DNA of 33,471 nt, from assembly GCA_016212195.1 (NCBI GenBank), contig JACRGW010000158.1, positions 1 through 33,471 of the forward strand, read 5' to 3'. A program made the translations under genes and the position numbers. The stretch is from Nitrospirota bacterium. Lineage in GTDB: Bacteria > Nitrospirota > Thermodesulfovibrionia > JACRGW01. The notes beneath the pieces were generated by a model. The model worked only from the letters and a program-made list of their open reading frames with translations, had not been told where the DNA came from and made no database searches. Positions 9,188-24,706 of this stretch are shown here, piece by piece. Position 1 is the stretch's first letter. Each line of letters begins with the position of its first letter.

Positions 9188-9263
9188 TTATCTCCTTCTA
9201 TATTCATAGTAAAATTATCATCTGAAATCCTGGTCTGTCGTCAGGATATATTTAATATTTTGT

Positions 9264-9292
9264 AATGCTAAATGCTAATTTCAAAATGTAAT
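9264..9292 (+). repeat. Short dispersed intergenic repeat, copy A (AATGCTAAATGCTAATTTCAAAATGTAAT)
   Basis: By my alignment, 16 of the first 19 nt are identical to copy B at 12536, and a similar TTT(A)CAA(AA)TG tail follows. It lies between the RDD stop and the mreB start. Confidence 0.45.
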
Positions 9293-10459: not shown

Positions 10460-12487
10460 ATGCCAGATACAGGTGGTGAGAGATCAAAGAAGGAGTTTTT
10501 AGGTGAGGCCGAAGATCTCCTGACAGAAATCAACAATAATGTTGAAGAATTAGAAGAAACCTACCAGGAGAGATTTAATCCTGATACCCTGAATGCCATC
10601 TTTAGGGGAGTCCATTCCCTAAAAGGGCTATCAGGGATATTTAGCCTCAATAGAATGTCCGAGTTGAGTCACCGCCTTGAATCCCTTCTTGATACTCTCC
10701 GTCTCGGTAAGATTGAACTTAACCGTGATGTCCTCAATCTTATTATAGAAGGATTAGGTATATTGAGGAAACTTCTTGGAGATGCAGAAAAGGGAGAAGA
10801 GGTTACTGATATTGAAGGCATACTTTCTGATATTGATCTCTTTATTAGAGATAGGACAAAAAGTTCTGAGATTTCTATCATAGATACCCTTGATATCGAC
10901 CAGGCAATCCTTAAAGTCCTCACCGAATATGAAGAGTACCGCCTGAAGACCAATATTAAAGAAAGCAGAAATATCTTTCTTCTGAAGGCAAGTTTTGGCC
11001 TGCAGAGTTTCGATACAGATCTGGAGGGTCTAAATAACAAAGTGAAGACCGTAGGAGAGGTTATTACAACCTTGCCTTCATCAGGGGTATCTCCTCAGGA
11101 AGGAATCCAGTTTACCCTTCTGATAGGTAGCAGTGAAGACCTTGAAGGGATAAGCGAGAGAGTAGGGAAGGGAAAGGTTGTTATTGAAGAGGTTGGCAGG
11201 AAGAAAGGGGTAGGAAATGTTGAAGGCATACAAACTTCGGAGAGATCAGACGAACCAAGGGTCAGACCTCCTTCTACCTCAGATACATCATTAAAAAGTA
11301 TGAGCAAGACAGTAAGGGTAGATATTGAGAGGTTAGATAGGCTTATGAATACAGTAGGTGAACTTGTTCTGACTAGGGCCGCCGTTGGCAGAATAAGTAA
11401 GGAACTAAAGCAGCTTCAGGGATATAGCATTCTTTCTATGGACCTTCAAAGGGTGTCACAGTCATTAGGTAAGAGACTCACCGCATTACAGAATGAGATT
11501 ATGGAGGTGAGGATGATACCTGTAGGGCAGATCTTCTCAAGACTTTCTCAGGTTGTGAGACGTTACAGCAAGGATATAGAAAAAGAGGTAGATATGGAAT
11601 TTTATGGCGAAGAGACAGAACTGGATAAATTCTTGGCAGAGGAGACAGCCGATCCGCTGATGCATATTATAAGAAATGCTATCGATCATGGTATCGAAAC
11701 CCCTGATATCAGGAGAAGATCAGGCAAAAAAGAGAGTGGTACTGTACGGCTCAGCGCCTTTCCAAGAGGTAATCATGTTGCCATAACTATCGAAGACGAC
11801 GGAGCAGGCATTGACACGGACACAGTCATTAAAAAGGCGATTGAGAGAGGTCTCGTCGAGAGGGATGCCGTATTGAATAAAAGAGAGATACTGGAACTTC
11901 TCTTTCTCCCTGGTTTTACTACTAAAAGAGACGTGACAGAAATGTCAGGCCGTGGTGTGGGATTGGATGTGGTGAAGACAAGGGTCTCTGATCTTAGTGG
12001 TTTCATTGATATTGATACAGAGTTTGGAAAGGGGACTACCTTCACAATTACAATTCCTATTACCTTAGCGATCATTAAAGCACTTATTGTAAAGGTTTCG
12101 AAGGAGATATTTGCGATCCCTATTAACTCGGTATCTGAAAACCTGATGATTCCTTTCCAGAAGGTGCAGAGGATAGAGAAGAAGGAGGTCTTGGAACTGA
12201 GGGGAGAGATGCTACCTCTTATGAGACTGGATAAGACATTCAATCTGCCTCCTGGTGAGGATACAGAGAATATTAATATTGTAGTAGTAGGTTTTGGAGA
12301 GAGAAGGATCGGCTTAGTGGTGAGTGATTTTATAGGACAGCAGGAGATTGTAATAAAATCTCTTGGAGAAAGCCTCAAGGGTGTCCCTGGGATTTCAGGG
12401 GCAACAGAAATGGGAAAGTATAAGGTTATACTCGTTTTAGATGTAGAGGCCCTTATTGACGAGGCAATGACGAGGAGAAGGGCATAA
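10460..12487 (+). CDS. cheA: Chemotaxis histidine kinase CheA
   Basis: Hpt domain with the phospho-His context FRGVHSLKGLSG, dimerisation segment VRVDIERLDRLMNTVGELV, HATPase boxes (HIIRNAIDHGIE, DDGAGID, GRGVGLDVV) and a C-terminal CheW-like domain. Confidence 0.93.
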   Translation: MPDTGGERSKKEFLGEAEDLLTEINNNVEELEETYQERFNPDTLNAIFRGVHSLKGLSGIFSLNRMSELSHRLESLLDTLRLGKIELNRDVLNLIIEGLGILRKLLGDAEKGEEVTDIEGILSDIDLFIRDRTKSSEISIIDTLDIDQAILKVLTEYEEYRLKTNIKESRNIFLLKASFGLQSFDTDLEGLNNKVKTVGEVITTLPSSGVSPQEGIQFTLLIGSSEDLEGISERVGKGKVVIEEVGRKKGVGNVEGIQTSERSDEPRVRPPSTSDTSLKSMSKTVRVDIERLDRLMNTVGELVLTRAAVGRISKELKQLQGYSILSMDLQRVSQSLGKRLTALQNEIMEVRMIPVGQIFSRLSQVVRRYSKDIEKEVDMEFYGEETELDKFLAEETADPLMHIIRNAIDHGIETPDIRRRSGKKESGTVRLSAFPRGNHVAITIEDDGAGIDTDTVIKKAIERGLVERDAVLNKREILELLFLPGFTTKRDVTEMSGRGVGLDVVKTRVSDLSGFIDIDTEFGKGTTFTITIPITLAIIKALIVKVSKEIFAIPINSVSENLMIPFQKVQRIEKKEVLELRGEMLPLMRLDKTFNLPPGEDTENINIVVVGFGERRIGLVVSDFIGQQEIVIKSLGESLKGVPGISGATEMGKYKVILVLDVEALIDEAMTRRRA

Positions 12488-12535
12488 AAATCAAAGTGCA
12501 AAATTATCATTTAGCATTGAAGATTTTAAATTTAA

Positions 12536-12562
12536 AATGCTAATTGCTAAATTTACAATGAA
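12536..12562 (+). repeat. Short dispersed intergenic repeat, copy B (AATGCTAATTGCTAAATTTACAATGAA), with an inverted partial copy at 12507..12518
   Basis: See copy A. TCATTTAGCATT at 12507..12518 is the reverse complement of AATGCTAAATGA. It can form an 8-bp stem with 12536..12543 across a 17-nt AT-rich loop. Confidence 0.45.
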
Positions 12563-12581
12563 AGATTAAACGGACTTTACG

Positions 12582-13394
12582 ATGTACGAAGAATATTATG
12601 GATTTAAGATGAAGCCATTCAGTAAGACCCCTGATCCGAGATTTCTCTATATGAGTAAAGGTCATGCCGAGGCACTTGCCAGGTTACAGTATGGAGTTGA
12701 GGAGAAAGAGTTTATTCTGCTCACCGGAGAGATTGGCTCGGGGAAAACCACACTTTCGAGGGCACTCATAGACTCCCTTAATAGTTCCCATAAGATTGTC
12801 TTGATTATTAATCCCCGTCTGAGCCCGGTTAACCTGTTAAAGACCCTTGCAAACGGATTTGGCATAGATCGCCCTTCGAGATCCAGAAATAATATCCTGG
12901 AAGTTATCTATAACTCTCTCTATAATCTTTATACCGAGGGGAATGTACCTGTTATTATCATCGATGAGGCACAGCTGATACCAAGTAAAGATACCTTTGA
13001 AGAGATCAGGCTGCTCACAAATTTCCAGCTCGATGATACAAACCTTCTCTCAATAGTCCTTATAGGACAACCGGATTTAAGGAAAAGACTTGGGGGGAAG
13101 TCGTATCAATCTCTGAGACAGAGGATAGGTCTGCTCTATCACCTTGAAGGACTTACTGAAGAAGAGGTTTGTGCCTATATAAATCATAGAATATCTGTAG
13201 CAGGAAGGGAGGAAAGGACCTTCACGGAAAGTGCCATCAGATCTGTCCACAGGCATTCAGGAGGGATCCCGAGGAAGATTAATAACCTCTGTACATATGC
13301 CCTCCTCGAAGGTTTCGGAAGAGGTGTGAGCCTGATAGAGGAAGATATAATAGAGGATGTCGCAGGGGAGTTAGGCTTTGCTCTAAAAGGATGA
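12582..13394 (+). CDS. ExeA/MshM-type AAA+ (AAA_22-like) ATPase consisting of the ATPase module only
   Basis: The N-terminal YGFKMKPFSKTPDPRFLY is typical of ExeA. Walker A is GEIGSGKT and Walker B is VIIIDEAQ, followed by LIGQP. At 270 aa there is no room for the C-terminal peptidoglycan-binding part of ExeA. Confidence 0.85.
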   Translation: MYEEYYGFKMKPFSKTPDPRFLYMSKGHAEALARLQYGVEEKEFILLTGEIGSGKTTLSRALIDSLNSSHKIVLIINPRLSPVNLLKTLANGFGIDRPSRSRNNILEVIYNSLYNLYTEGNVPVIIIDEAQLIPSKDTFEEIRLLTNFQLDDTNLLSIVLIGQPDLRKRLGGKSYQSLRQRIGLLYHLEGLTEEEVCAYINHRISVAGREERTFTESAIRSVHRHSGGIPRKINNLCTYALLEGFGRGVSLIEEDIIEDVAGELGFALKG

Positions 13395-13406
13395 GTATTT
13401 CTTTTT

Positions 13407-13435
13407 TGTCACCATGAACGTAGCGAAGGGCTCAG
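13407..13435 (+). repeat. Possible solo relative of the 24647 repeat family (TGTCACCATGAAC...AGGGCTCAG)
   Basis: It shares the 13-mer pattern TGTCAYSMTGAAC with 24647 (+, TGTCACCCTGAAC) and 24706 (-, TGTCATGCTGAAC). It is not itself a hairpin. Confidence 0.3.
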
Positions 13436-13459
13436 AGTAACAAAAAGTGAGGAATAGAA

Positions 13460-14143
13460 ATGGATTTAGTGAATATTAGGAAAAAGGCACAGCAGGAGAA
13501 GGCGAAAGAAGAAAAACCCCAGGACTCAACCCAGAAACAGGTTCAGGGAAAGACTGAGGATGCTGAGGCAAATCTTCAAGTCGAAGGGGAGATAACAGAA
13601 GAGGCAATATCAATTGAAAAGGATGAAACAGGGATGCCTTTACAATCAGGCGGGGTTGAGTTATCCCAAGAGATAAGGGAAGAGATTCAGGAGATTCCTT
13701 CTTTACCATACAGCGAAGAAGAGTCAGTAGTTGAGGTAATATCCTTTAGGCTTGGGGATGAAATTTACGGTGTGAAGATAGATTATGTAAGGGAAATACT
13801 CAAACCTCTCGAGATAACATCTGTTCCGAGAACACCTTCTTATCTAAAGGGTGTAACATCCTTAAGAGGGGAGATTATCCCTGTCTTTGATCTCAAGGAA
13901 AGATTGGGTCTGGAAGGAATTCAGCAGGATAAAAAGAGAAGAATTCTTATACTCTCAATAAGGAACGAGACTATAGGTGCTGTGATTGATGAGGTTCTTG
14001 GAGTTATTAAGCTCCTTAAGGAGTCTATAGATTCTACTCCTACTATTATCACAGGTATAGAGGCAGATTTTCTCGAAGGGATAAGCCTGGTAGATGATAG
14101 ATTCATTGGCCTCCTTAATGTTGAAGAGGTCATGAAAATATAG
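13460..14143 (+). CDS. cheW: CheW-like coupling protein with an ~85-aa acidic, low-complexity N-terminal extension
   Basis: The CheW domain starts around VISFRLGDEIYGVKIDYVREI...LRGEIIPVFDLKERLG. The preceding part is rich in K, E and Q. Confidence 0.85.
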   Translation: MDLVNIRKKAQQEKAKEEKPQDSTQKQVQGKTEDAEANLQVEGEITEEAISIEKDETGMPLQSGGVELSQEIREEIQEIPSLPYSEEESVVEVISFRLGDEIYGVKIDYVREILKPLEITSVPRTPSYLKGVTSLRGEIIPVFDLKERLGLEGIQQDKKRRILILSIRNETIGAVIDEVLGVIKLLKESIDSTPTIITGIEADFLEGISLVDDRFIGLLNVEEVMKI

Positions 14144-14167
14144 TCGAAAAACTATTTGAGGAAGAAT

Positions 14168-16642
14168 ATGAGTCTACCTAATATCTTTAAGGGAAGATTA
14201 AGAATAAAAATCCTCAGTCTGGCGGTCGCAATCCTGGGCCTCGAGATGGTATTCCTTGTTATCCTGACATTAGAATTAAAGAGGGATATAATCCAGCTTT
14301 TCCTTTTGGCATCAACTGTAGCGATCTTCTTTACGATAATCCTTCAGGTTCTTTTGAGAAGGATGGTCATTGAGCCCATTGAAAGACTGGTGGATTCTAT
14401 GAAGAAGGTCTCTGAGGGAAATCTCACCCCGATTTCTGGGATTACATCAAGGGATGAAATAGGTGATCTAACTAATACAATAAATGAATCCATATTCCAT
14501 ATGGGGAGCATGATTGGTGGAATAAATGATGTATCAAAAGAAGTAGAGAGGGTGGGTTCTCAGGTATCCGATGATTCTAAGAGGTTAATCGAATTTGCCC
14601 AGATACAGCTTGGTTCTATTGAAACAATTACTGGATCAATTGAAGAATTAAATGCAGCAATCAAGGGGATCGCCTCCTCTATAGATGAGTTGTCTATCTC
14701 GGCTGTACAGACCTCATCTTCTATACTCGAAATGATGTCATCAGTGGATGAAGTGGCAAATTCAACTGTTACACTATCCACCTCTGTAGAGGGAACAGCG
14801 TCTTCTATAGATGAGATGAACGCCTCAGTAAAGGAAGTGGCTCAAAGTGCAGAGGTCCTTTCTAAGGCGTCAGAAGAGACATCTTCTGCTGTTGAGGAGA
14901 TCAACGCTACTATAAAAGAGGTAGAAATCGCTTATAGGGAGAGTGCGAGGCTCGCTGATAAGGTTAAGGAAGATGCCTCACAGCTCGGAATGGTCTCTAT
15001 AGAAAAGACAATAGAGGGAATGAAAGGGATAAAAGAGAAGGTGGAGAGGACCGCGGAATTGATAAACAGGCTCGGCAGCAGAAGCGAAGAGATAGGGAAG
15101 GTCATTAATGTTATAGATGAGGTTACTGACCAGACATCCCTCCTTGCCCTTAATGCTGCTATCCTGGCTGCCCAGGCAAAGGAACATGGCAAGGGTTTCT
15201 CAGTGGTAGCGGAGGAGATTAAGGATTTGGCTGAAAAGACAGCGGCTTCTACAAAAGAGATAGGAGACCTCATCGCCTCTGTTCAGGGAGAGGCTAAAGG
15301 TGCGGTAGAGGCGATGGGAGAGGGGCTCAGTAAGGTGGAAGAAGGGGTCAGGCTTAGCAAGGAGGCAGGAGATGCCTTAAAACAGATACTGGAAAGTGCG
15401 AAGATTTCTTCTGAGATGGCATCTTCGATAGAGAGGGCGACTATAGAACAGGTCAAGGGTATAAAACAGGTCGTTGGGGCAATGGACAGGATAAGGGATA
15501 TGATAGTTCATATTTCTAACGCTATTTCCGAACAGACAAAAGGGGTTGGACAGATAGTCCTTGCGGCTGAGAAGATGAGGGATATTACAGAGAAGGTTAG
15601 ATCTGCCACTTCTGAGCAATCTAAGGCAAGTAAGCAGATAACCCAGGCAGTTGAGATTGTTACTGAAAAGATTCAGGACATGTCACATTCTATACAGGAG
15701 CAGAAGATTGGAAGTAATTTGATAATGAATTCTATAGAGGGGGCAAGGGATATACCAAAGAGGAATGTAGATATCGCCTTCGAGATAAACCAGAGGATAC
15801 TTACCCTGATAAAGGCTACAGACCTTCTTAAGGCAGAAACGGGGAGATTTAAGATAAGCGAGGTTTATATCCGAGAAAAGGGTTTAAGGATGGGTGTTAT
15901 ACCCTTAGAGTCCCCGGCAGAGATGTTCAGGAAATTTACCCCCTTGACTGAATATCTATCGATAGCCCTTGGTATGAAGGTAAGTCTTAAACTTGCCCTC
16001 GATTTTGAAGGGACTATAGAAGATTTAGGCAAAGGTGTTACCCAGATCTGTTATATGACACCCACAACCTATATAGAGGCAAGCCAGAGATACGGGGTTA
16101 GGCCCATTGTTAAAGAAGTCCTCGATGGAAAACCTTTCACCAATTCTGTAATAGTAGCAAAGGAAGGGAGCAAAGTTAATACGGTTGAAGATATAAGGGG
16201 TAGGACCTTTGCCTTTGGCGATCCAAAATCGACAACAAGCCATATCATCCCAAGAAATATGCTCCTGGAGGTTGGAATAGATCTTAAAGACCTTAGGTCT
16301 TATAGATACCTGGGACATCATGATAATGTTGCCCAGGCTGTTCTAAAAGGGGAGTTTGATGTTGGCGGAATGCTCGAATCTATCGCCTATAAGTTCATCC
16401 CTCAGGGGCTGAAGATTATCAAGGTATCTACAGATATCCCGGGGTTTAATATATGTGTAGCTAAAGACATTGACCCAACAGTAAAGGAAAAACTTAAAAA
16501 GACCCTTCTCGACATAAACAATCAAAAGGAAGAGACAAAAAAAATCCTTAAAGCTATAAATCCGAGACAGACAGGATTTGTCGAGGCCCATGACGATGAC
16601 TACAGCGGGATAAAAAAGATGATGAGAACTATTAAATTATAA
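14168..16642 (+). CDS. Methyl-accepting chemotaxis protein: TM hairpin, HAMP, very long signalling domain, and a C-terminal PhnD-like (type 2 periplasmic-binding-protein fold) domain
   Basis: Two adjacent TM helices with almost no loop, then HAMP (PIERLVDSMKKVSEGNL...DEIGDLTNTIN). The conserved hairpin tip is LLALNAAILAAQAKEHGKGFSVVAEEIKDLAEKT. The C-terminal ~250 aa resemble PhnD (GVIPLESPAEMFRKFTPLTEYLS..., FAFGDPKSTTSHIIP, GHHDNVAQAVLKGEFDVGG). The track starts at TTG 14156. I prefer ATG 14168, which lies behind GAGGAAG. Confidence 0.9.
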   Translation: MSLPNIFKGRLRIKILSLAVAILGLEMVFLVILTLELKRDIIQLFLLASTVAIFFTIILQVLLRRMVIEPIERLVDSMKKVSEGNLTPISGITSRDEIGDLTNTINESIFHMGSMIGGINDVSKEVERVGSQVSDDSKRLIEFAQIQLGSIETITGSIEELNAAIKGIASSIDELSISAVQTSSSILEMMSSVDEVANSTVTLSTSVEGTASSIDEMNASVKEVAQSAEVLSKASEETSSAVEEINATIKEVEIAYRESARLADKVKEDASQLGMVSIEKTIEGMKGIKEKVERTAELINRLGSRSEEIGKVINVIDEVTDQTSLLALNAAILAAQAKEHGKGFSVVAEEIKDLAEKTAASTKEIGDLIASVQGEAKGAVEAMGEGLSKVEEGVRLSKEAGDALKQILESAKISSEMASSIERATIEQVKGIKQVVGAMDRIRDMIVHISNAISEQTKGVGQIVLAAEKMRDITEKVRSATSEQSKASKQITQAVEIVTEKIQDMSHSIQEQKIGSNLIMNSIEGARDIPKRNVDIAFEINQRILTLIKATDLLKAETGRFKISEVYIREKGLRMGVIPLESPAEMFRKFTPLTEYLSIALGMKVSLKLALDFEGTIEDLGKGVTQICYMTPTTYIEASQRYGVRPIVKEVLDGKPFTNSVIVAKEGSKVNTVEDIRGRTFAFGDPKSTTSHIIPRNMLLEVGIDLKDLRSYRYLGHHDNVAQAVLKGEFDVGGMLESIAYKFIPQGLKIIKVSTDIPGFNICVAKDIDPTVKEKLKKTLLDINNQKEETKKILKAINPRQTGFVEAHDDDYSGIKKMMRTIKL

Positions 16643-16664
16643 CAGGATTGAAAGGAGGAAGAAT

Positions 16665-16694
16665 ATGAATCTAAGAAATATGAATCTAAGAAAT
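16665..16694 (+). repeat. Perfect 15-bp tandem duplication that includes the MCP start codon
   Basis: ATGAATCTAAGAAAT occurs twice in a row, giving MNLRN-MNLRN. Confidence 0.8.
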
Positions 16695-18746
16695 AAAGCA
16701 ATTTTATTAATGGTCCTGATCCTCCTTTCGGTATTAAGTATAAATACAATAGTTCTCATGAAGGTAGTGACAGGTAGATACAAAAATGCCCTTCTTGTTA
16801 AAACAACACTTATAGGGAAAGGAATTAAAAGTGAGATAAGTAGGCCAGCGGAAGTAGGCGTCCCCCTCGGGAGTCTTTTAGGGGTTAATGATATGTTGAG
16901 GAGGCTAATCGAAGAGAATAAGGATATTGGTTATTCTATGGTTGTTGATAGCACAGGTAAGATCCTCTTCCATAATGATCAAGTTATGATTAGTAAAACT
17001 CTTACAGAGATACCGGAGATGGAGGCTATAAAGACCGAGGAGTTTATAACTAAACCCGTGGGAGATTATTATGAAACAACCCTTCCACTATTTGGTCCTG
17101 AGAAAAAACTCGTTGGCTTTATAAAAGTGGCACTTAAGAAGAAAGAGTTATCAGCTCAGATCTCCTCCATGCTTTTGAAATCTATAACTGTTGCTCTCGT
17201 AGGATTTATCTTGGGCATTACCCTTGTAGCCTTCTTTGTTTCAAGATTCATAACAAGGCCTATAACAACCTTTGCCTCTACAGCCTTTGAGATAACAAGG
17301 GGAGACTTCACAAAGACAATAGAGATAAGATCTAATGATGAAGTTGGGGAACTAGGTGGGACGATAAACAGGATGGTAGAGAACCTCGGAAATATTTTCA
17401 AAAGGTTTAAGTCAGCTGCTATGAATGTATCCATGGCAGCCGAGCAGATAGCGATAAACTCTAAGAAAATGACTACAGGTTCAAGAACTCAGGTAGAGGC
17501 AGTTGAGAAGACATCCTCCTCTCTACAGGAGTTGAACTCAACTATCAGGGAGATTGCAAACTCTGTATCTACACTTTCTACATCTGCAGTAGAAACTTCA
17601 TCTTCTGTCCTCGAGATAAGTTCCTCAATAGAAGAGGTTGCAAATAGTACCTCCGGCCTTGCAGGCACTATCTCTGAAACAACGGCTTCCCTGGAACAGA
17701 TAGGGGCCTCTGTTAAAAAAGTTGCAAGGAGTGCGGAGGTCTTAGAGGAGGCAATATCCGAAACAGGAGGGGCCGCAGCGGAGATTGATGCTGCCATAAG
17801 GACTGTAGCGGATAATGCAAAGGAATCATCAATGCTTGCAGGTAAGGTTGTCTCCGATGCCTCGGAGTTTGGGATGGTCTCTGTTGTTAATGCAATAGAT
17901 GGGATGGATAAAATAAAAGGTTCTGTAAAGAAGGCCGGTGATTCAGTAAACCACCTGAAGGAGAGATCATTGGAGATAAATAAAATCGTTGCTGTTATTG
18001 ATGCAGTAACTTCCAGAACAAACCTCCTGGCATTAAACGCAGCAATCTTAGCTGCCCAGGCAGGGGAACACGGTAAAAGTTTTTCTGTTGTGGCAGAAGA
18101 GATCAGGGAACTTGCAGAGAAGACTTCTGCTTCTACAAAAGAGATAGCCGATCTGATAGTGACGATCCAGCAGGAGACACAGGATACTGTAGATATAATG
18201 AAGGAAGGTCTTATAAGGGTAGATGATGGTAATAAACTGGTTTACGCAGTAGGTGATGCCTTAAGGACGATCATCCATTCTTCACAGCAGTCCCAGGTTG
18301 CAGCAAAGGGCATAGAAGGGGCAGCTGTTGAACAGGCGAGGGGTGTGAAACAGGTGACTGAATCTGTTGAAAGAGTAAAAGATATGATAGTGAATATTGC
18401 GAATGCAATCCGTGAACTCAGGAACGGGACAGACCAGATTGTGAAGGCAATGGAGGTTGTAGATAGTATATCTAAACATGTGAAAAAGGCTATGGAAGAC
18501 CAGTCAAGTGGGAGCAGGCAGATAGGCTCAGTTGCTGAAAATACGGTGGAGAAGACACGGCTAATATCAAAGGCAACAGAAGAGCAGAGAATCGGGACTG
18601 AATCCATCCTTCGGTCTATCGACGAGGTTAAGACCGTGGCTGTGGAAGGAATGGATATAGCCTCTGAGATAGATCTTGCTATGGAGGGCATCAGGAAGGA
18701 TGCTGAAGACCTGAAAAGAGTGGTTGAGGTATTTAAGGTAAAATAA
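16665..18746 (+). CDS. Methyl-accepting chemotaxis protein: TM, ~135-aa Cache-like periplasmic domain, TM, HAMP, very long signalling domain
   Basis: The periplasmic segment carries the Cache-like GYSMVVDSTGKILFHND. HAMP reads RPITTFASTAFEITRGDF...DEVGELGGTINRM. The tip is LLALNAAILAAQAGEHGKSFSVVAEEIRELAEKT. It is a paralog of the preceding MCP. Confidence 0.9.
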   Translation: MNLRNMNLRNKAILLMVLILLSVLSINTIVLMKVVTGRYKNALLVKTTLIGKGIKSEISRPAEVGVPLGSLLGVNDMLRRLIEENKDIGYSMVVDSTGKILFHNDQVMISKTLTEIPEMEAIKTEEFITKPVGDYYETTLPLFGPEKKLVGFIKVALKKKELSAQISSMLLKSITVALVGFILGITLVAFFVSRFITRPITTFASTAFEITRGDFTKTIEIRSNDEVGELGGTINRMVENLGNIFKRFKSAAMNVSMAAEQIAINSKKMTTGSRTQVEAVEKTSSSLQELNSTIREIANSVSTLSTSAVETSSSVLEISSSIEEVANSTSGLAGTISETTASLEQIGASVKKVARSAEVLEEAISETGGAAAEIDAAIRTVADNAKESSMLAGKVVSDASEFGMVSVVNAIDGMDKIKGSVKKAGDSVNHLKERSLEINKIVAVIDAVTSRTNLLALNAAILAAQAGEHGKSFSVVAEEIRELAEKTSASTKEIADLIVTIQQETQDTVDIMKEGLIRVDDGNKLVYAVGDALRTIIHSSQQSQVAAKGIEGAAVEQARGVKQVTESVERVKDMIVNIANAIRELRNGTDQIVKAMEVVDSISKHVKKAMEDQSSGSRQIGSVAENTVEKTRLISKATEEQRIGTESILRSIDEVKTVAVEGMDIASEIDLAMEGIRKDAEDLKRVVEVFKVK

Positions 18747-18763
18747 CTCAAGGACTGATTTAT

Positions 18764-19237
18764 ATGGAAGATCAAGAAACCAGAGTAGCTATTTTTTCCG
18801 TAGGTGAAGAGGAATATGCGATAGATATAATGAGAGTGGTTGAGATTCTTAGACCACAAAAGGTAACAAGACTTCCTAAGAGTCCGGATTTTATAGAGGG
18901 GGTGTTAAACCTGAGAGGAAAGGTTATCCCTATAGTAGACCTCAGAAAAAGATTCGGTATTGAACCTACTGACAGACATGGGAATGAACGGATATTATTA
19001 ATCCGGGTAGGGGAAGAGATAGTTGGACTTCAGGTGGATGGAATAAGTGATGTACGCAGTCTCTCAAGGGAAGATATAGTGTCTCCCCCAACTATTGTTA
19101 AGGGAATAAAAACCGAATATCTCGAAGGTGTTGGAAAGGTAGGGGAGAAGTTAATAATAATACTGAATCTTGATAAGATCCTCTCTACAGAAGAGATGCT
19201 TGTTCTTGAATCAATTGAAGAGACTGAAAAGGCATAA
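18764..19237 (+). CDS. cheW: CheW coupling protein
   Basis: A 157-aa protein consisting of a single CheW domain (FSVGEEEYAIDIMRVVEILR...LRGKVIPIVDLRKRFG). Confidence 0.9.
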   Translation: MEDQETRVAIFSVGEEEYAIDIMRVVEILRPQKVTRLPKSPDFIEGVLNLRGKVIPIVDLRKRFGIEPTDRHGNERILLIRVGEEIVGLQVDGISDVRSLSREDIVSPPTIVKGIKTEYLEGVGKVGEKLIIILNLDKILSTEEMLVLESIEETEKA

Positions 19238-19251
19238 GGTCTAACATCCTC

Positions 19252-21264
19252 ATGGAGAGAATATTGGATAGTTTTGCGGATTTGGTGAAGGGTATTAATG
19301 ACGAAAATGCAGAGATAAGAAGATTATCTGCCTTGGGGCTTGCTGATTATGGTGAGGAATCTATCCCTCACCTCCTTAAGACCTTAGGAGATGCTGATTG
19401 GCGTGTCAGGAAGACCTCTGTTGAGTCATTCCTGAAGATTGGCGGAAGAAGGGTTATAGAAAGCCTCATCTCATCCCTGAATATCCAGGATAATGCAGGG
19501 GCAAGAAACTCCGCAATAGAGGCACTCACAAGGATAGGGAAGGAGGCAGTCCCATTTCTTATAAACAGCTTTGAGGACGCCCATCAAGATGTCAGAAAAT
19601 TCATCGTCGATATCCTCGGAGAAGTAGGAGACAAAAGAGCTACCCCTCTCTTTATTGCGGCGTTAACAGATAGGGATGATAATGTTAGATTCTCTGCAAT
19701 AGAACATCTCGGTAAGATAAGAGATGAGAAGGCAATAAATCCCCTTTTGAAGATATTTAAAAAGAAGGAACTCTGGCTTAGCTATCCTGCTGCTATTTCA
19801 CTCGGTAATATTGGAGATTCAAGGGTTCTCGAGCCACTTCTTGATGCCCTTAAAGAGAAACCACTGAGAGAGGCAGCCTTAAAAGGCCTTGGTGCCCTGG
19901 GGGATAAAAGGGCACTGGCTCAGGTTATAAAATTCCTGAAAGACCCTTCGAGGTCAATCAGGGAAATTTCACTCCAGGTTATTATAGATATTTCGAAGAA
20001 GAATCCTAATGATAAGGGGACCATCACAATTATAAAGGAAAATATTGATAGAGAGATATCAGACTATCTGCTCCAGTCCCTCAAAAGAGAGAAGGCTCAG
20101 ATAAAATTAGCATCCGTAAGGCTTTTGGGATGGGTGGGGGCTGAAAGGGCTGTTGAGCCACTTGTAAACCTTCTCCAGGAAGACGAACTTCAAGAAAAGG
20201 TAATGGAGGCACTCTTAATTCTTGGTAGGGGTGGTGCTATCCATGCCCTTATCCCCTTCTTAGATAACCCTGATAATATTATCAGGAGATGTATATCCTA
20301 TCTCTTAGGAGAGATAGGTGATAGTACTGCTGTTGAGGCACTGATAAAATCCCTATCTGATGAAGACGGGCATGTAAGGGGAAACTCAATGATAGCCTTA
20401 GGGAAGATAAAGGATAGAAGGGCTATAATCCCTCTCATGGATTTCCTTAATGATGAATATAATAATGTCCAGGAATCTGCCGTAACTGCCCTGGTCGAGA
20501 TAGGGACTGAGGTGGAACAACTCCTTCCTATGCTTTCTTCAAAGGAATCAGATTTTAGAAAGAATATAGCCCTGCTTTTAGGCAGGCTAAAAGCGAAGAA
20601 AGCGGTCTCATCCCTTGGCTTTGTTATCAAAGATGAGTCACCTGAAGTAAGGGAGGCGGTTGTAAAGGCACTTGGTATGATAGGGGGAGAGGAGGCAGGA
20701 AGATTTTTAATTTCAGCCTTGACCGACGAGGAGCCACGGGTAAAAATGGCATCTGCCATTGCCATCGGCGAAATTAGTTATAAAAAGGGGATTGATTCCC
20801 TTATCATACTTCTTAAAGATGAAAATAGCAGGGTAAGAGCAGCAGTTGCAAGAGGTATTGGAAAACTTAAGAATCCAGCCGCCGTCCTTCCCCTTATAGA
20901 ACTCCTTGATGATAAAGACCCTATGGTCAGAATCTCTGTAATTGAGTCCTTAGGAGAGATAGGAGATATGTCAGCACTTCCGTACCTATTACGACTCCTT
21001 AAAGAAAAAGACCCTGAACTAAAAAAGATCACCATCAGAACACTTTCTAAACTGGGCTTTAATAAGGTTCAGGCCCTTGAAATCTTAAAGGAGCTTCTGC
21101 CTCTCCTTTCGGATAGAGACTGGGGTGTAAGGAAGGCAGTATTAGAAGTATTAGGGAGATTTCCTGAGAAGGATGTTAAAGGATATATCATTAAGGTAGC
21201 CGAGACAGATGAAGACGAAGTGGTCAGAAAGACAGCGGATGATATACTTAAAGGTAAGAAATGA
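19252..21264 (+). CDS. HEAT-repeat protein (PBS-lyase HEAT-like repeats, roughly 20 units)
   Basis: The whole 670 aa shows ~31-aa periodic units of the form D.D..VR..A..ALG.IGD..A...L...L.D. Confidence 0.85.
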   Translation: MERILDSFADLVKGINDENAEIRRLSALGLADYGEESIPHLLKTLGDADWRVRKTSVESFLKIGGRRVIESLISSLNIQDNAGARNSAIEALTRIGKEAVPFLINSFEDAHQDVRKFIVDILGEVGDKRATPLFIAALTDRDDNVRFSAIEHLGKIRDEKAINPLLKIFKKKELWLSYPAAISLGNIGDSRVLEPLLDALKEKPLREAALKGLGALGDKRALAQVIKFLKDPSRSIREISLQVIIDISKKNPNDKGTITIIKENIDREISDYLLQSLKREKAQIKLASVRLLGWVGAERAVEPLVNLLQEDELQEKVMEALLILGRGGAIHALIPFLDNPDNIIRRCISYLLGEIGDSTAVEALIKSLSDEDGHVRGNSMIALGKIKDRRAIIPLMDFLNDEYNNVQESAVTALVEIGTEVEQLLPMLSSKESDFRKNIALLLGRLKAKKAVSSLGFVIKDESPEVREAVVKALGMIGGEEAGRFLISALTDEEPRVKMASAIAIGEISYKKGIDSLIILLKDENSRVRAAVARGIGKLKNPAAVLPLIELLDDKDPMVRISVIESLGEIGDMSALPYLLRLLKEKDPELKKITIRTLSKLGFNKVQALEILKELLPLLSDRDWGVRKAVLEVLGRFPEKDVKGYIIKVAETDEDEVVRKTADDILKGKK

Positions 21265-22145
21265 TAGGAATGAATGGATCGTTCAAGATGTCTGATGACA
21301 CATTCAGACTCATCCGAGATTTTATAAGGAATTATTGTGGGGTATATTTCGACGATGGATCTAAATTCCTCCTGGAAAAGAGGCTATCGAGAAGGGTAGA
21401 GAATTATCTCTTAAATAACTTTGAGGATTATTACCATTTTTTAATGTATGATAAAAGGAGAGATGAAGAACTGGCATCGGTGATAGATGTCTTAACAGTA
21501 AATGAAACCTACTTCTTCAGGGAATTCTCTCAGCTTAAGGCATTAAGCGATGAGATCATCCCTGAAATCGGTGAGAGGAGGAAGGATAAGAAAAGACTCA
21601 GGATATGGTCAGCAGGTTGTTCTACAGGCGAAGAGCCTTATACAATCGCGATATTGATACTTGAGAAAAATCTCATGCCTGAATGGGAGATAGAGATACT
21701 GGGAAGTGATATAAACCAGAGGGTTATTCATGCAGCAAGGAGAGGGATTTACAGAAAGAACGCCTTCAGGAGTATTGATGATTATTATATCAGAAAGTAT
21801 TTCACAGATGAAGGAGAAGGGAATTACAGGATTGTTGATCCTGTAAGGAGTTTGGTGAACTTCAGCCTTCTGAATCTCGTAGACCCCTTTAAAGTAAGAT
21901 TTGTTGGTAAGATGGATGTGATATTCTGCAGGAATGTAATTATCTATTTTGACAGGGACGCAAAGAAAAAGGTAATCAATAATTTTTATGATAGACTCAC
22001 AGAAGAAGGTTATCTCCTTTTAGGTCACTCCGAGTCTTTAATGAATATTTCTACTGACTTCATGCTAAAGCATCTCAAGAATGACCTTGTTTACCAGAAA
22101 CCCACAAGATCGGCATTAACAGGAGAGATGGTATGGAAAAGATAA
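21261..22145 (+). CDS. cheR: Chemotaxis protein methyltransferase CheR
   Basis: The N-terminal helical domain contains TVNETYFFRE. The SAM-binding fold contains RIWSAGCSTGEEPYTIAI and IFCRNVIIYFD. The start overlaps the upstream stop as ATGA. Confidence 0.9.
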   Translation: MIGMNGSFKMSDDTFRLIRDFIRNYCGVYFDDGSKFLLEKRLSRRVENYLLNNFEDYYHFLMYDKRRDEELASVIDVLTVNETYFFREFSQLKALSDEIIPEIGERRKDKKRLRIWSAGCSTGEEPYTIAILILEKNLMPEWEIEILGSDINQRVIHAARRGIYRKNAFRSIDDYYIRKYFTDEGEGNYRIVDPVRSLVNFSLLNLVDPFKVRFVGKMDVIFCRNVIIYFDRDAKKKVINNFYDRLTEEGYLLLGHSESLMNISTDFMLKHLKNDLVYQKPTRSALTGEMVWKR

Positions 22146-23200
22146 GGGTTCTTGTTGTAGATGACTCTCCATATAGTCGTCAGACAATAACAAGGATGCT
22201 TCAGCAGACATCTTTCATCGATGCAATCGGTACCGCTTCTGACGGTAAGGAGGCGATGTCAAAGGTGATAAAATTCAGGCCTGATGTAGTGACACTCGAT
22301 TTAGCGATGCCGGTTATGGATGGTTTTGCCTTCCTTAGATGGGTAATGAAAGAATTTCCTCTACCTGTCATAGTAGTAAGTTTCTACGCGGATGACAGGA
22401 GTTTTCTTAAGGCCTTTGAGCTTGGTGCAGTAGATTTTATTTTAAAGCCGACAGCCAGGGCATCACCTGAACTTCAGAAGATCAAGGACGAACTGATAGA
22501 AAAGATAAGTGCAGTCGCACATCTTGAAATGTCTAAAATGAAGGCTAATCTTGATCTCCTTACGAGTGATGATAGTAAGTATAGAGAGATTGAAGATGTG
22601 TTTCCTGAGCCAAAGGGAGTTGAGCTTATTGCGATCGGCGCATCAACAGGTGGACCTCCTGCGATTCAGGCCATCCTTTTGAGGCTTCCGAAAAACCTTC
22701 CTGCTGGGGTTGTTATATCCCAGCATATGCCTGAAGGATTCACAAAACATTTTGCTGAAAGGCTTGATACCATATCTCCCCTCCATGTAAAAGAGGCAGA
22801 GGATGAAGATACTGTTGAAAGGGGGAAGATTCTTATAGCACCTGGCGGTTATCATATGGTCCTGGAAAAGAAAGGGGAAAATGTTAAGACAATACTAAGA
22901 AAGAAAAGTGATGCTGATAAGTATGTCCCTTCGGTAAATCTGATGATGAAGTCTTCCGCAGCAGTTTATGGAAGAAAGGTACTTGGTGTTATTCTTACAG
23001 GAATGGGAAACGATGGGAAGGATGGTATGAAGGCGATAAAAGAGAAGAAGGGTCAGACCATTGTAGAGTCTGAGGAGACCTCTGTTGTATTCGGGATGCC
23101 ACAGGAGGTTATAACTGCAGGGGCTGCTGATAAGGTGCTCCCCTTAAAGAAGATCCCCGAGGAGATAATTAAGAGATGTATGATGGATGAAAAACCGTAA
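22133..23200 (+). CDS. cheB: Chemotaxis response regulator protein-glutamate methylesterase CheB
   Basis: The REC domain contains VLVVDDS and TLDLAMPVMDG. The esterase domain contains IGASTGGP, SQHMPEGFT and GMGNDG. The gene overlaps cheR by 13 nt. Confidence 0.92.
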   Translation: MEKIRVLVVDDSPYSRQTITRMLQQTSFIDAIGTASDGKEAMSKVIKFRPDVVTLDLAMPVMDGFAFLRWVMKEFPLPVIVVSFYADDRSFLKAFELGAVDFILKPTARASPELQKIKDELIEKISAVAHLEMSKMKANLDLLTSDDSKYREIEDVFPEPKGVELIAIGASTGGPPAIQAILLRLPKNLPAGVVISQHMPEGFTKHFAERLDTISPLHVKEAEDEDTVERGKILIAPGGYHMVLEKKGENVKTILRKKSDADKYVPSVNLMMKSSAAVYGRKVLGVILTGMGNDGKDGMKAIKEKKGQTIVESEETSVVFGMPQEVITAGAADKVLPLKKIPEEIIKRCMMDEKP

Positions 23201-23243
23201 ACAGTTAACCGTAAACTGTCAACCGTTTTAAGGGAGGTATAAC

Positions 23244-24068
23244 TTGGGACCCAGAAAAGGAGAAGGCAAAATTCAGAAAAAGTCTGAGGAGTTCCTTCAG
23301 ATATTCAGAAAAGGTGAGGAATTTACACAGGAACTTCTTAAAGAGAATGAGAGGTTAAGGTTTAAATTGGTTGAGCTTGAGGAAGAACTCAAGGAGATGG
23401 GTAAGAACAGGGTAAAATTCCTTGAGGAGCGTAGTCGTATCCTTGAGAAAGAGAAGAAAGAGATTCAAGAGAGGTATAGACAGGTGGAGGCAGAGAATAA
23501 AGACTTTGTTGCTAAATATCTGGATGTAGAAGAGGAGAATAATAATCTTGCTAACCTGTATGTGGCAAGCTACCAGCTCCACTCCACACTCGATTTTAAT
23601 GAGGTATTGAGAACTGTTATCGAGATAGTATCAAATCTCATCGGGGCCGAAAGATTTGCTATTATGATTGTGGATGAAATGACAGAAGAGCTAAAAGTGA
23701 TCGCCTCTGAGGGACTTAATAAGGAAGATATCCCTAAAGTAAAATCTGGAGAAGGGATTATAGGAGAGGTAGTAATAACAGGAGAAAGTTACTTTGAAGA
23801 ATTTGTTCCAGGACGCACCTCAAAGGACCTCTCTAAACCAGTAGTCTGCATACCCCTTAAGATCAAAGAAAAAGTAATAGGGGTAATAGCAATCTATTCA
23901 CTCCTTATACAGAAAAAGGGTTTTATAAATGTTGACTATGAACTCTTCAATCTTTTAGTCGGTCATACAGCAACGGCAATATTTTCTTCGAAGCTCTATA
24001 CACAATCTGAAGGAAAACTGACAACAATTCAGACTTTCATTGACATTCTAAACGAGAAACCTCTATGA
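23244..24068 (+). CDS. Protein with an N-terminal ~100-aa coiled coil and a C-terminal GAF-like domain
   Basis: The first ~100 aa are heptad-rich and E/K/L-rich. The remainder (LDFNEVLRTVIEIVSNLIGAERFAIMIVDE...VIGVIAIYSL) follows the GAF pattern. The start is TTG with GGGAGG 6 nt upstream. Confidence 0.7.
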   Translation: MGPRKGEGKIQKKSEEFLQIFRKGEEFTQELLKENERLRFKLVELEEELKEMGKNRVKFLEERSRILEKEKKEIQERYRQVEAENKDFVAKYLDVEEENNNLANLYVASYQLHSTLDFNEVLRTVIEIVSNLIGAERFAIMIVDEMTEELKVIASEGLNKEDIPKVKSGEGIIGEVVITGESYFEEFVPGRTSKDLSKPVVCIPLKIKEKVIGVIAIYSLLIQKKGFINVDYELFNLLVGHTATAIFSSKLYTQSEGKLTTIQTFIDILNEKPL

Positions 24069-24099
24069 AAAGGCACCATATATTGAAGGGGGATTAGAG

Positions 24100-24474
24100 A
24101 TGTCAGATATAAACTTTCTTATAGTTGAAGATTCGCCGACGATGAGGCAATTGATTGCCTTTGCCCTTAAAAGGATTCAGAAGGCAAGGGTAGTGGAGGC
24201 CACAGATGGTGTTGATGCCCTGAAAAAGATGGTAGGTCAGAATTTTGACATGCTTTTTGTTGATATAAATATGCCTGTTATGGATGGTCTTAAGTTTGTT
24301 AGCCTCGTAAGGGCAGATCCAGCCAAAAAGGATGTTCCTATAATAATGATCACAACAGAAGGGGCTGAAGAAGATAGAAAAAGGGCTCTATCGCTCGGGG
24401 CCAGCGCCTATTTAACGAAGCCGATTCTGATACAGGAACTTCTACAGATTGTGAGTCAGCATCTGAAACAATAA
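24100..24474 (+). CDS. cheY: Single-domain CheY-like response regulator
   Basis: 124 aa with the acidic pair ED (IVEDS), phospho-acceptor context LFVDINMPVMDG, T in MITTEG and K in LTKP. Confidence 0.85.
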   Translation: MSDINFLIVEDSPTMRQLIAFALKRIQKARVVEATDGVDALKKMVGQNFDMLFVDINMPVMDGLKFVSLVRADPAKKDVPIIMITTEGAEEDRKRALSLGASAYLTKPILIQELLQIVSQHLKQ

Positions 24475-24646: not shown

Positions 24647-24706
24647 TGTCACCCTGAACTTGTTTCAGGGTCTATAGGGGATGCTGAAACAAGTTCAGCA
24701 TGACAG
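24647..24706. repeat. Palindromic doublet (REP/BIME-like): two 21-nt hairpin units in opposite orientation
   Basis: Unit 1, 24651..24671: ACCCTGAA-CTTGT-TTCAGGGT. Unit 2, 24681..24701: ATGCTGAA-ACAAG-TTCAGCAT. The 15-nt cores CTGAACTTGTTTCAG and CTGAAACAAGTTCAG are exact reverse complements. The outer TGTCA and TGACA also pair. Confidence 0.7.

Follow-up and report, generated by a model that had tools for sequence, protein, structure and literature searches.

Chemoreceptor arrays are thought to self-assemble, and to our knowledge ParA-type positioning ATPases are the sole energy-using helpers of these structures. In this regard, a puzzling arrangement is offered by a 33,471-nucleotide stretch of DNA (the window, hereafter) from a Nitrospirota bacterium of the class Thermodesulfovibrionia, where an open reading frame at positions 12582-13394 of the forward strand, placed between the cheA and cheW genes of a chemosensory (che) cluster, codes for an ExeA-like ATPase. 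The window corresponds to contig JACRGW010000158.1 of assembly GCA_016212195.1 (our contig C124), which belongs to a metagenome-assembled genome (MAG) of 1.39 Mb, 84% complete. What is such an ATPase doing among chemotaxis genes? The first-pass annotation, made from the sequence of the window, left the choice between a secondary insertion into the operon and a new type of ATPase for the assembly or positioning of the array. The comparisons presented here contradict the insertion, and the best explanation, which we hold with moderate confidence, is that an ancestral and co-inherited ATPase of the ExeA/GspA family, together with the CheW encoded next to it, forms a GspA/GspB-like module acting on the chemosensory array.

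Judged by its sequence, the gene product is a soluble AAA+ ATPase of the ExeA/GspA/MshM type with intact catalytic motifs, 270 aa long from its ATG start, and a member of the ExeA/GspA family, which we take to be COG3267. Pfam AAA_22 is its sole domain (aa 41-170, E 2.4e-25, 89.8 bits vs a cut-off of 27), whereas the best NCBIfam match, TIGR03015, runs from end to end (aa 1-264 on positions 1-266 of 269) with a score of 260.7 bits that does not reach the curated cut-off of 324.5. The three motifs quoted in the first-pass annotation are all in place: PFSKTPDPRFLY (aa 12-23, positions 12615-12650), the Walker A GEIGSGKT (aa 49-56, 12726-12749) and the Walker B IIIDEAQ (aa 125-131, 12954-12974). 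The first of them is part of the ExeA N-terminal signature (Y/F)GLxxxPFxxxPDPxF that precedes the AAA core, which reads MYEEYYGFKMKPFSKTPDPRFLY in the window and where P12, F13, P17, D18, P19 and F21 are invariant. Among 15 ATPase orthologs, invariance extends to the Walker A stretch G49-T57 (K55 included), D128/E129, Q163, R181, R231 and N234. The absence of a peptidoglycan-binding C-terminal part was also confirmed, as neither a PG_binding nor a C39-like domain was found in the Pfam scan, and no transmembrane segment; a true GspA from a relative of the same class (locus L019) showed both GspA_C39-like and PG_binding_1 in that scan. No other ExeA-like gene than the one in the window was found in its own genome.

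The AlphaFold2 (AF2) model of the ATPase, with a predicted local distance difference test (pLDDT) score of 90.4, shows an AAA+ alpha/beta core followed by a helical lid. Foldseek placed MuB filaments, Cdc6/Orc1 and TnsC at the top of its matches (TM-scores of ~0.6-0.66), and the fold matches AAA+ proteins, RuvB included, and not ParA. A sequence search of the PDB gave P-loop-level matches together with a weak full-length match to TnsC, and found no solved ExeA-type ATPase domain. AAA+ proteins like MuB, TnsC and Cdc6/Orc1 are not unfoldases but act as switches or matchmakers that oligomerise in an ATP-dependent way. An origin from a transposon of the TniB/TnsC/IstB kind was also considered in view of the AAA_22 domain and the fold, and rejected because no transposase lies close by and the gene order is constant. 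Public names for the orthologs are inconsistent (TsaE, TadA or Flp pilus ATPase, ExeA, GspA, 'AAA family ATPase'), TsaE and TadA being misannotations that stem from P-loop similarity.

A constant position behind cheA

In the relatives of this bacterium, the ATPase keeps its place between cheA and cheW. Among 40 genomes of the class, 15 carry an ortholog (54-98% identity), which lies directly after cheA in all of them and is followed by cheW in 14. A wider set, with one genome per species, added 59 further loci at 46-62% identity from Nitrospirota, Acidobacteriota (Thermoanaerobaculia and Vicinamibacteria) and Desulfuromonadales/Geobacteraceae, the cultured Oryzomonas japonica among them, and cheA was directly upstream of the ATPase in 58 of the 59. 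The usual order is CheY-CheA-ATPase-CheW-(MCP/CheY)-CheW-HEAT-CheR-CheB-(GAF), where MCP stands for methyl-accepting chemotaxis protein, and the gene set found downstream of the ATPase in the window recurs downstream in other phyla. One locus (L038, JBLMWN010000020.1) comes from a MAG labelled as Betaproteobacteria; it nests in a Nitrospirota subclade of the ATPase tree, has the same cheA-ATPase-cheW order and is probably mis-binned.

A maximum-likelihood tree collected the che-linked ATPases in a single clade of 75 rows (support 99/97), which contains the window protein (row L001) and stands apart from 24 non-che paralogs. Around paralogs at 47% identity or less (L018-L021 and L081-L101) no che context was found, with the exception of L083, from a Melioribacteraceae MAG; it is the lone apparently 'non-che' row of the clade, and there the ATPase is followed by a 426-aa CheW protein. 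Moreover, pairwise distances between ATPases follow those between their neighbouring CheA proteins (r = 0.89, Mantel p = 0.001), with the ATPase being the more conserved of the two (mean distance of 0.44 vs 0.53 for CheA), and exactly one ortholog was present in 109 of 121 Geobacteraceae genomes searched. Altogether, the fixed position, the single clade and the co-divergence with CheA identify the ATPase as an old and co-inherited part of the che cluster.

Absences also occur. An orthologous CheA was found in 18 relatives of the class, and three of them have no ATPase: G010 and G013, which belong to one genus, keep a CheY-CheA-CheW-MCP-MCP-CheW-HEAT cluster where cheW overlaps cheA, and in G006 an MCP-like gene comes directly after cheA. 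Che clusters without the gene in close relatives, together with a transcript of its own, had been named in advance as the findings that would speak for an insertion. The absences answer to this in part; the genomes in question are distant kin at the level of the class, two of them with the whole cluster, and we read them as losses because other members of the G010/G013 family have the ATPase.

The feature that initially suggested an insertion was the spacing of the gene. The two flanking spacers, of 94 nt (12488-12581) and 65 nt (13395-13459), are indeed the longest of the cluster, with the rest measuring 12-43 nt or being replaced by overlaps. Repeats had been reported in both of them. The upstream spacer does contain an AT-rich palindrome at 12509-12552 with the form TTTAGCATT-N16-AATGCTAAA, which has a relative at 9259-9290 of the window and about six more copies on other contigs (C13, C49, C95, C168, C47 and C120), and which could serve as a binding site for a regulator or be REP-like. 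The downstream repeat at 13407-13435 is weaker than implied: it belongs to a hairpin family (TGTCACCCTGAAC...GGGTCTC) as a diverged and partial copy, in which only a 13-nt head (12 of 13 bases) and a GGGCTC tail match. This family, with ~20 copies in the genome including one at 24647-24705 of the window, is a two-hairpin intergenic repeat (TGTCACCCTGAACTYGTTTCAGGGTCT ... GATGCTGAAACAAGTTCAGCATGACA) and is abundant for a genome of 1.39 Mb. Candidate roles of the spacers as terminators or structured RNAs were rejected, since the RNA fold of either one is no better than that of shuffled sequence (z = -1.4 upstream and -1.2 downstream) and no terminator-like site was found in the 94 nt between cheA and the ATPase.

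A comparison with close relatives clarifies the meaning of these spacers. In a genome of the same genus (G001), whose ATPase is 98% identical, the upstream spacer is a different one of ~125 nt and only 14 nt remain downstream; this other spacer (L003, ~2311-2441) is made of other short repeats (GATGCAGGATGCC / GATGCCTGATACAG / CATCAGGCATCATGCATC). In G002, from the same family and a different genus, the upstream spacer with its palindrome is 96% identical and the downstream one has 17 nt; the neighbouring 47 nt at the 3′ end of cheA, in contrast, are ~81% identical. In many other relatives, the stop of the ATPase and the start of cheW simply overlap. The repeats are thus lineage-specific and replaced within the same genus, and therefore they landed in an existing operon and are no mark of an inserted gene. 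Small mobile repeats seem to have a hot spot at the cheA-ATPase junction, and the long spacers, where such elements landed recently, are uninformative on the origin of the ATPase gene.

The partner CheW and the GspA/GspB parallel

The protein encoded after the ATPase is a long CheW, in which a low-complexity linker, 60-100 residues in length or longer, joins a conserved N-terminal peptide to the CheW domain. In the window (gene at 13460-14143), these parts are the peptide MDLVNIRKK (13460-13486), a K/E/Q-rich linker of ~80 aa (13487-13732) and a CheW domain at aa 92-225 of 227 (13733-14143; Pfam CheW, E 1e-34). Among orthologs the linker varies in both length and sequence, and the peptide follows the consensus M-D-[IL]-A-K-I-R-K-K-A-K with an invariant Arg7 (61 sequences); the window protein fits the form M-D-[IL]-x-x-I-R-K-K. 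With a strict pattern, 63 che-linked loci gave a single match each, where the gene after the ATPase begins, and a relaxed pattern raised the number to ~68 of 74. The peptide was found in none of 25 non-che paralog loci (~12 kb each) nor in the three loci lacking the ATPase, whose genomes gave spurious matches alone.

A natural experiment is provided by the split cluster of genome G011 (L105, G011:C1:44000-62000; L109), in which a CheY-CheA-ATPase group ends against a convergent gene, and a CheW starting with MDIAKIRKKLKD (MDIAKIRKK), followed by an MCP, is found 17 kb away from the ATPase on the same contig. The convergent gene encodes an MglA-like small GTPase with a long acidic C-terminal extension. 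The peptide is lost with the ATPase and kept when the two genes are unlinked, and therefore it is the ATPase that the peptide tracks, rather than CheA or the remainder of the cluster. In sum, the ATPase and a CheW with the N-terminal peptide and a disordered tether show a strict co-occurrence. Two Geobacteraceae candidates for natural ATPase-CheW fusions, with frames that stay open over 473 and 499 aa, each resolved into a pair of distinct genes with 9 nt between them.

An AAA+ ATPase followed by a protein with a short basic start peptide recalls ExeA/GspA and ExeB/GspB, the two proteins that serve secretin assembly in the type II secretion of Aeromonas and Vibrio. The ATPase domain of ExeA is needed if a complex with ExeB is to form (PMC4098917), and the cytoplasmic N-terminus of GspB is short and the gene for GspB usually lies next to gspA (PMC9239104). 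Both systems share the AAA_22 core, the ExeA N-terminal signature, and a partner gene located immediately downstream whose product starts with a short, conserved and basic peptide. On the other hand, the window ATPase differs from GspA/ExeA in lacking a transmembrane segment and the C39-like and peptidoglycan-binding domains, and its partner differs from GspB in that the cargo is CheW and not a T2SSB/HR secretin-binding domain, with no secretion gene nearby. No T2SSB match was obtained in its own genome, which is 84% complete and where the T2SSB control gave no signal either. The XrtA/PEP-CTERM ATPase (TIGR03015) and MshM of the MSHA pilus operons resemble the window protein in being soluble short forms of ~270 aa, but the context in the window is chemosensory instead of exopolysaccharide (EPS) or pilus genes, and the score lies below the family cut-off; a match to XrtA (TIGR03109) was likewise not found in the incomplete genome.

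Paralogs of the family offer a broader view of the partner peptide. Nitrospirota paralog loci, with ATPases at ~42-44% identity to the window protein and outside its clade, contain a GspA (AAA_22, GspA_C39-like and PG_binding_1) followed by a GspB that has a T2SSB domain and MSFILDALKK as its start. Next to short soluble paralogs of Verrucomicrobiota and relatives, the following protein starts MSLIQ[DE]AL[KR]R and the genes overlap by 4 nt; in the one partner scanned among them (L082) a T2SSB domain was found. Two other non-che ExeA-like ATPases are followed by proteins of a very different nature, an HD-GYP-type protein starting MVRITDILKE (L091:6811-8028) and a ParA/AAA_31 BY-kinase-like protein starting MGKITSALKK (L084:6970-7776). 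Such GspB-like N-termini suggest interchangeable cargo on one docking peptide. When shifted by one residue, the che and GspB consensus peptides share hydrophobic-x-x-[I/A]-[R/L]-K-K, which suggests that the che-linked pair may be a GspA/GspB-type module with CheW in place of the secretin-binding domain, a lead rather than a proof. E. coli K-12 GspA/GspB was discarded as a yardstick for being too degenerate: its GspA is 27% identical over 127 aa and has no N-terminal signature, and its GspB starts MFEFYIAAREQ.

The cluster and its Geobacter counterpart

The genes of the window cluster all lie on one strand. A cheA gene for a 675-aa protein with Hpt, dimerisation, HATPase_c and CheW-like domains (10460-12487) is directly 5′ of the ATPase, and the long cheW is followed, from 14156 to 24474, by an MCP with a PhnD-like C-terminus, an sCache MCP, a plain cheW, a 670-aa HEAT-repeat protein, cheR, cheB, a coiled-coil GAF protein and cheY, as assigned by Pfam. 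The first MCP (14156-16642) carries a complete phosphonate-binding PhnD-like domain C-terminal to its signalling domain (Pfam Phosphonate-bd, E 2.4e-63), an architecture repeated in orthologous clusters (MCP1 matches q10-828 in L102 and L103). The cluster is of the non-flagellar Geobacter 'beta-group' or Esn type, which goes together with receptors of class 40H and with a HEAT-repeat protein.

In Geobacter sulfurreducens, an annotated 'ATPase' gene, GSU2221, lies within che cluster 5 between esnC/GSU2222 (CheA) and esnB/GSU2220 (cheW40H-1). The Geobacteraceae loci that group with the window protein, with ATPase orthologs at 47-52% identity, show the order cheY40H-cheA-ATPase-cheW40H-...-HEAT-cheR-cheB, as seen at GSU2221, which we assign to the che-linked clade by this matching order and by the Geobacteraceae orthologs of public genomes, not by its own sequence. 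The Geobacter clusters have extra CheY genes and no MCP genes, whereas the window cluster has two MCPs and the GAF protein. Tn-seq (transposon sequencing) on electrodes gave log2 values of -2.8 for esnC, -2.1 for GSU2221 and -2.4 for esnB, and scarless deletions of esnB and esnC abolished electrode colonisation with Fe(III) oxide still being reduced; GSU2221 was not deleted (PMC5585712). Tran et al. had already classified cluster 5 as the 'beta group' in 2008 and mentioned unpublished evidence of extracellular matrix control, with no mention of the ATPase in the text (PMC2577667). In our literature search, no paper dealing with ExeA-like ATPases of che clusters came up, nor any dedicated study of GSU2221.

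A tethered CheW proposed to act on the array, and rival readings

How could such a pair operate? ATPase-driven positioning of chemoreceptor arrays is a feature of ParC/ParP in Vibrio and PpfA/TlpT in Rhodobacter, and the window pair likely shares their logic, in which an ATPase encoded in the che cluster works with a CheW-domain protein whose N-terminal part sits on the ATPase and whose CheW-like domain sits in the array. The ATPase of the window would bind the N-terminal peptide of the long CheW, the CheW domain of the latter would take its place in the receptor-CheA lattice, and ATP-dependent oligomerisation of the ATPase would nucleate, tether, position or remodel the signalling array. Both the docking of the peptide and an oligomerisation acting on the array are plausible steps, read from sequence features. 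The ATPase would then be functionally analogous to ParC/ParP while having a different fold, since ParC and PpfA have a ParA/MinD fold with the deviant Walker A KGGxxK[ST] and the window protein a MuB/TnsC/Orc1-like AAA+ fold with the classical GxxGxGKT; the analogy is one of function, not of membership. As for the array assembly or positioning ATPase proposed in the first-pass annotation, it is a plausible reading, compatible with all our findings and indirectly favoured by the ATPase-dependent peptide of CheW. A bolder extension, which we regard as tentative and put clearly behind the module itself, would see in the ExeA/GspA family a portable docking code, where an N-terminal peptide (hydrophobic-x-x-hydrophobic-[L/R]-K-K) on the downstream protein couples the AAA+ engine to GspB, CheW, HD-GYP or BY-kinase/ParA-like cargo, and the che version would be a third, AAA+-based route to build or place arrays after ParC/ParP and PpfA, at work in the Esn electrode-colonisation pathway of Geobacter.

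Several observations weigh against an array-directed GspA/GspB-like module. Docking was modelled from natural in-frame ATPase-stop-CheW stretches of eight loci, translated with table 6, together with ATPase-only and CheW-domain-only rows, and the L070 chain was predicted with AF2. The ATPase and CheW domains each exceeded a pLDDT of 90 and the linker was disordered (29-43), but the peptide helix (residues 274-287) reached just 52-57, in an output made of pLDDT scores alone. The likeness between the che and GspB peptides, over ~7 positions and with a shift of one residue, could be a convergence on a basic amphipathic helix. The ATPase, while widespread, is not indispensable, as the cluster is retained without it in a genus of Thermodesulfovibrionia, and the orthologous cheA in a third genome. 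Moreover, the Tn-seq phenotype of GSU2221 may be a polar effect on esnB.

The main rival holds that the ATPase is an output or adaptor of the pathway, kept at the array by the tethered CheW, with a nucleotide or oligomeric state set by signalling and an action on some process in the envelope, for instance the assembly of exopolysaccharide, pili or secretins. Its appeal comes from the nearest curated family, which is the XrtA/PEP-CTERM exopolysaccharide-associated ATPase, from paralogs that adjoin GspB, EPS and BY-kinase-like genes, and from the reports that the Geobacter beta-group cluster controls extracellular matrix (PMC2577667) and electrode colonisation (PMC5585712). Yet the cluster has no conserved gene for a secretin, GspB, a pilus or EPS, the genome itself gave no XrtA or T2SSB match within the limits already mentioned, and the sole partner feature that tracks the ATPase resides on CheW, a structural part of the array. 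A further count against it is that the HEAT-repeat protein, by analogy with Cpc7 of M. xanthus, is a candidate output already present among the cluster's products. Considering both sides, we judge an effector role unlikely, although it is the strongest of the competing explanations. The ATPase might instead act on the kinase, as a switch or chaperone for the dimerisation or turnover of CheA, leaving the CheW peptide with an unrelated task, for instance as a helix that binds membranes or lipids. It is in fact to cheA that the ATPase is linked most tightly and most constantly, cheY-cheA-ATPase trios persist when cheW is elsewhere, and a basic amphipathic helix like this peptide may well bind acidic lipids. 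Nevertheless, an unrelated membrane anchor would not explain why the peptide is lost with the ATPase in independent lineages and retained when the genes are unlinked, which makes this possibility improbable in our view.

As for an ExeA-like gene that landed with its repeats between cheA and cheW as a passenger, expressed on its own and with no functional link to chemosensing, the long repeat-bearing spacers would fit it, and so would the sigma-70-like hexamer matches in the AT-rich upstream spacer. Nonetheless, many such promoter-like matches arise by chance in AT-rich DNA (19 found over the whole region vs 10.7 expected), spacer content differs even within a genus, and the position of the ATPase is constant in three phyla, in a single clade that co-diverges with CheA and with genes tight or overlapping in most relatives. 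A passenger gene is consequently a very remote prospect.

For the array-directed module that we favour, G. sulfurreducens offers a direct test system, with a clear esnB/esnC electrode-colonisation phenotype and an ATPase gene with a Tn-seq signal of its own. An AAA+ ATPase conserved in one class of chemosensory operons across three phyla, nearly universal in Geobacteraceae and with a tethered CheW as its partner, suggests that the array is built, placed or reset through an ATP-dependent step so far unstudied. If this is true, the ExeA/GspA/MshM family would gain its first mechanistic handle, on the contact between ATPase and partner.

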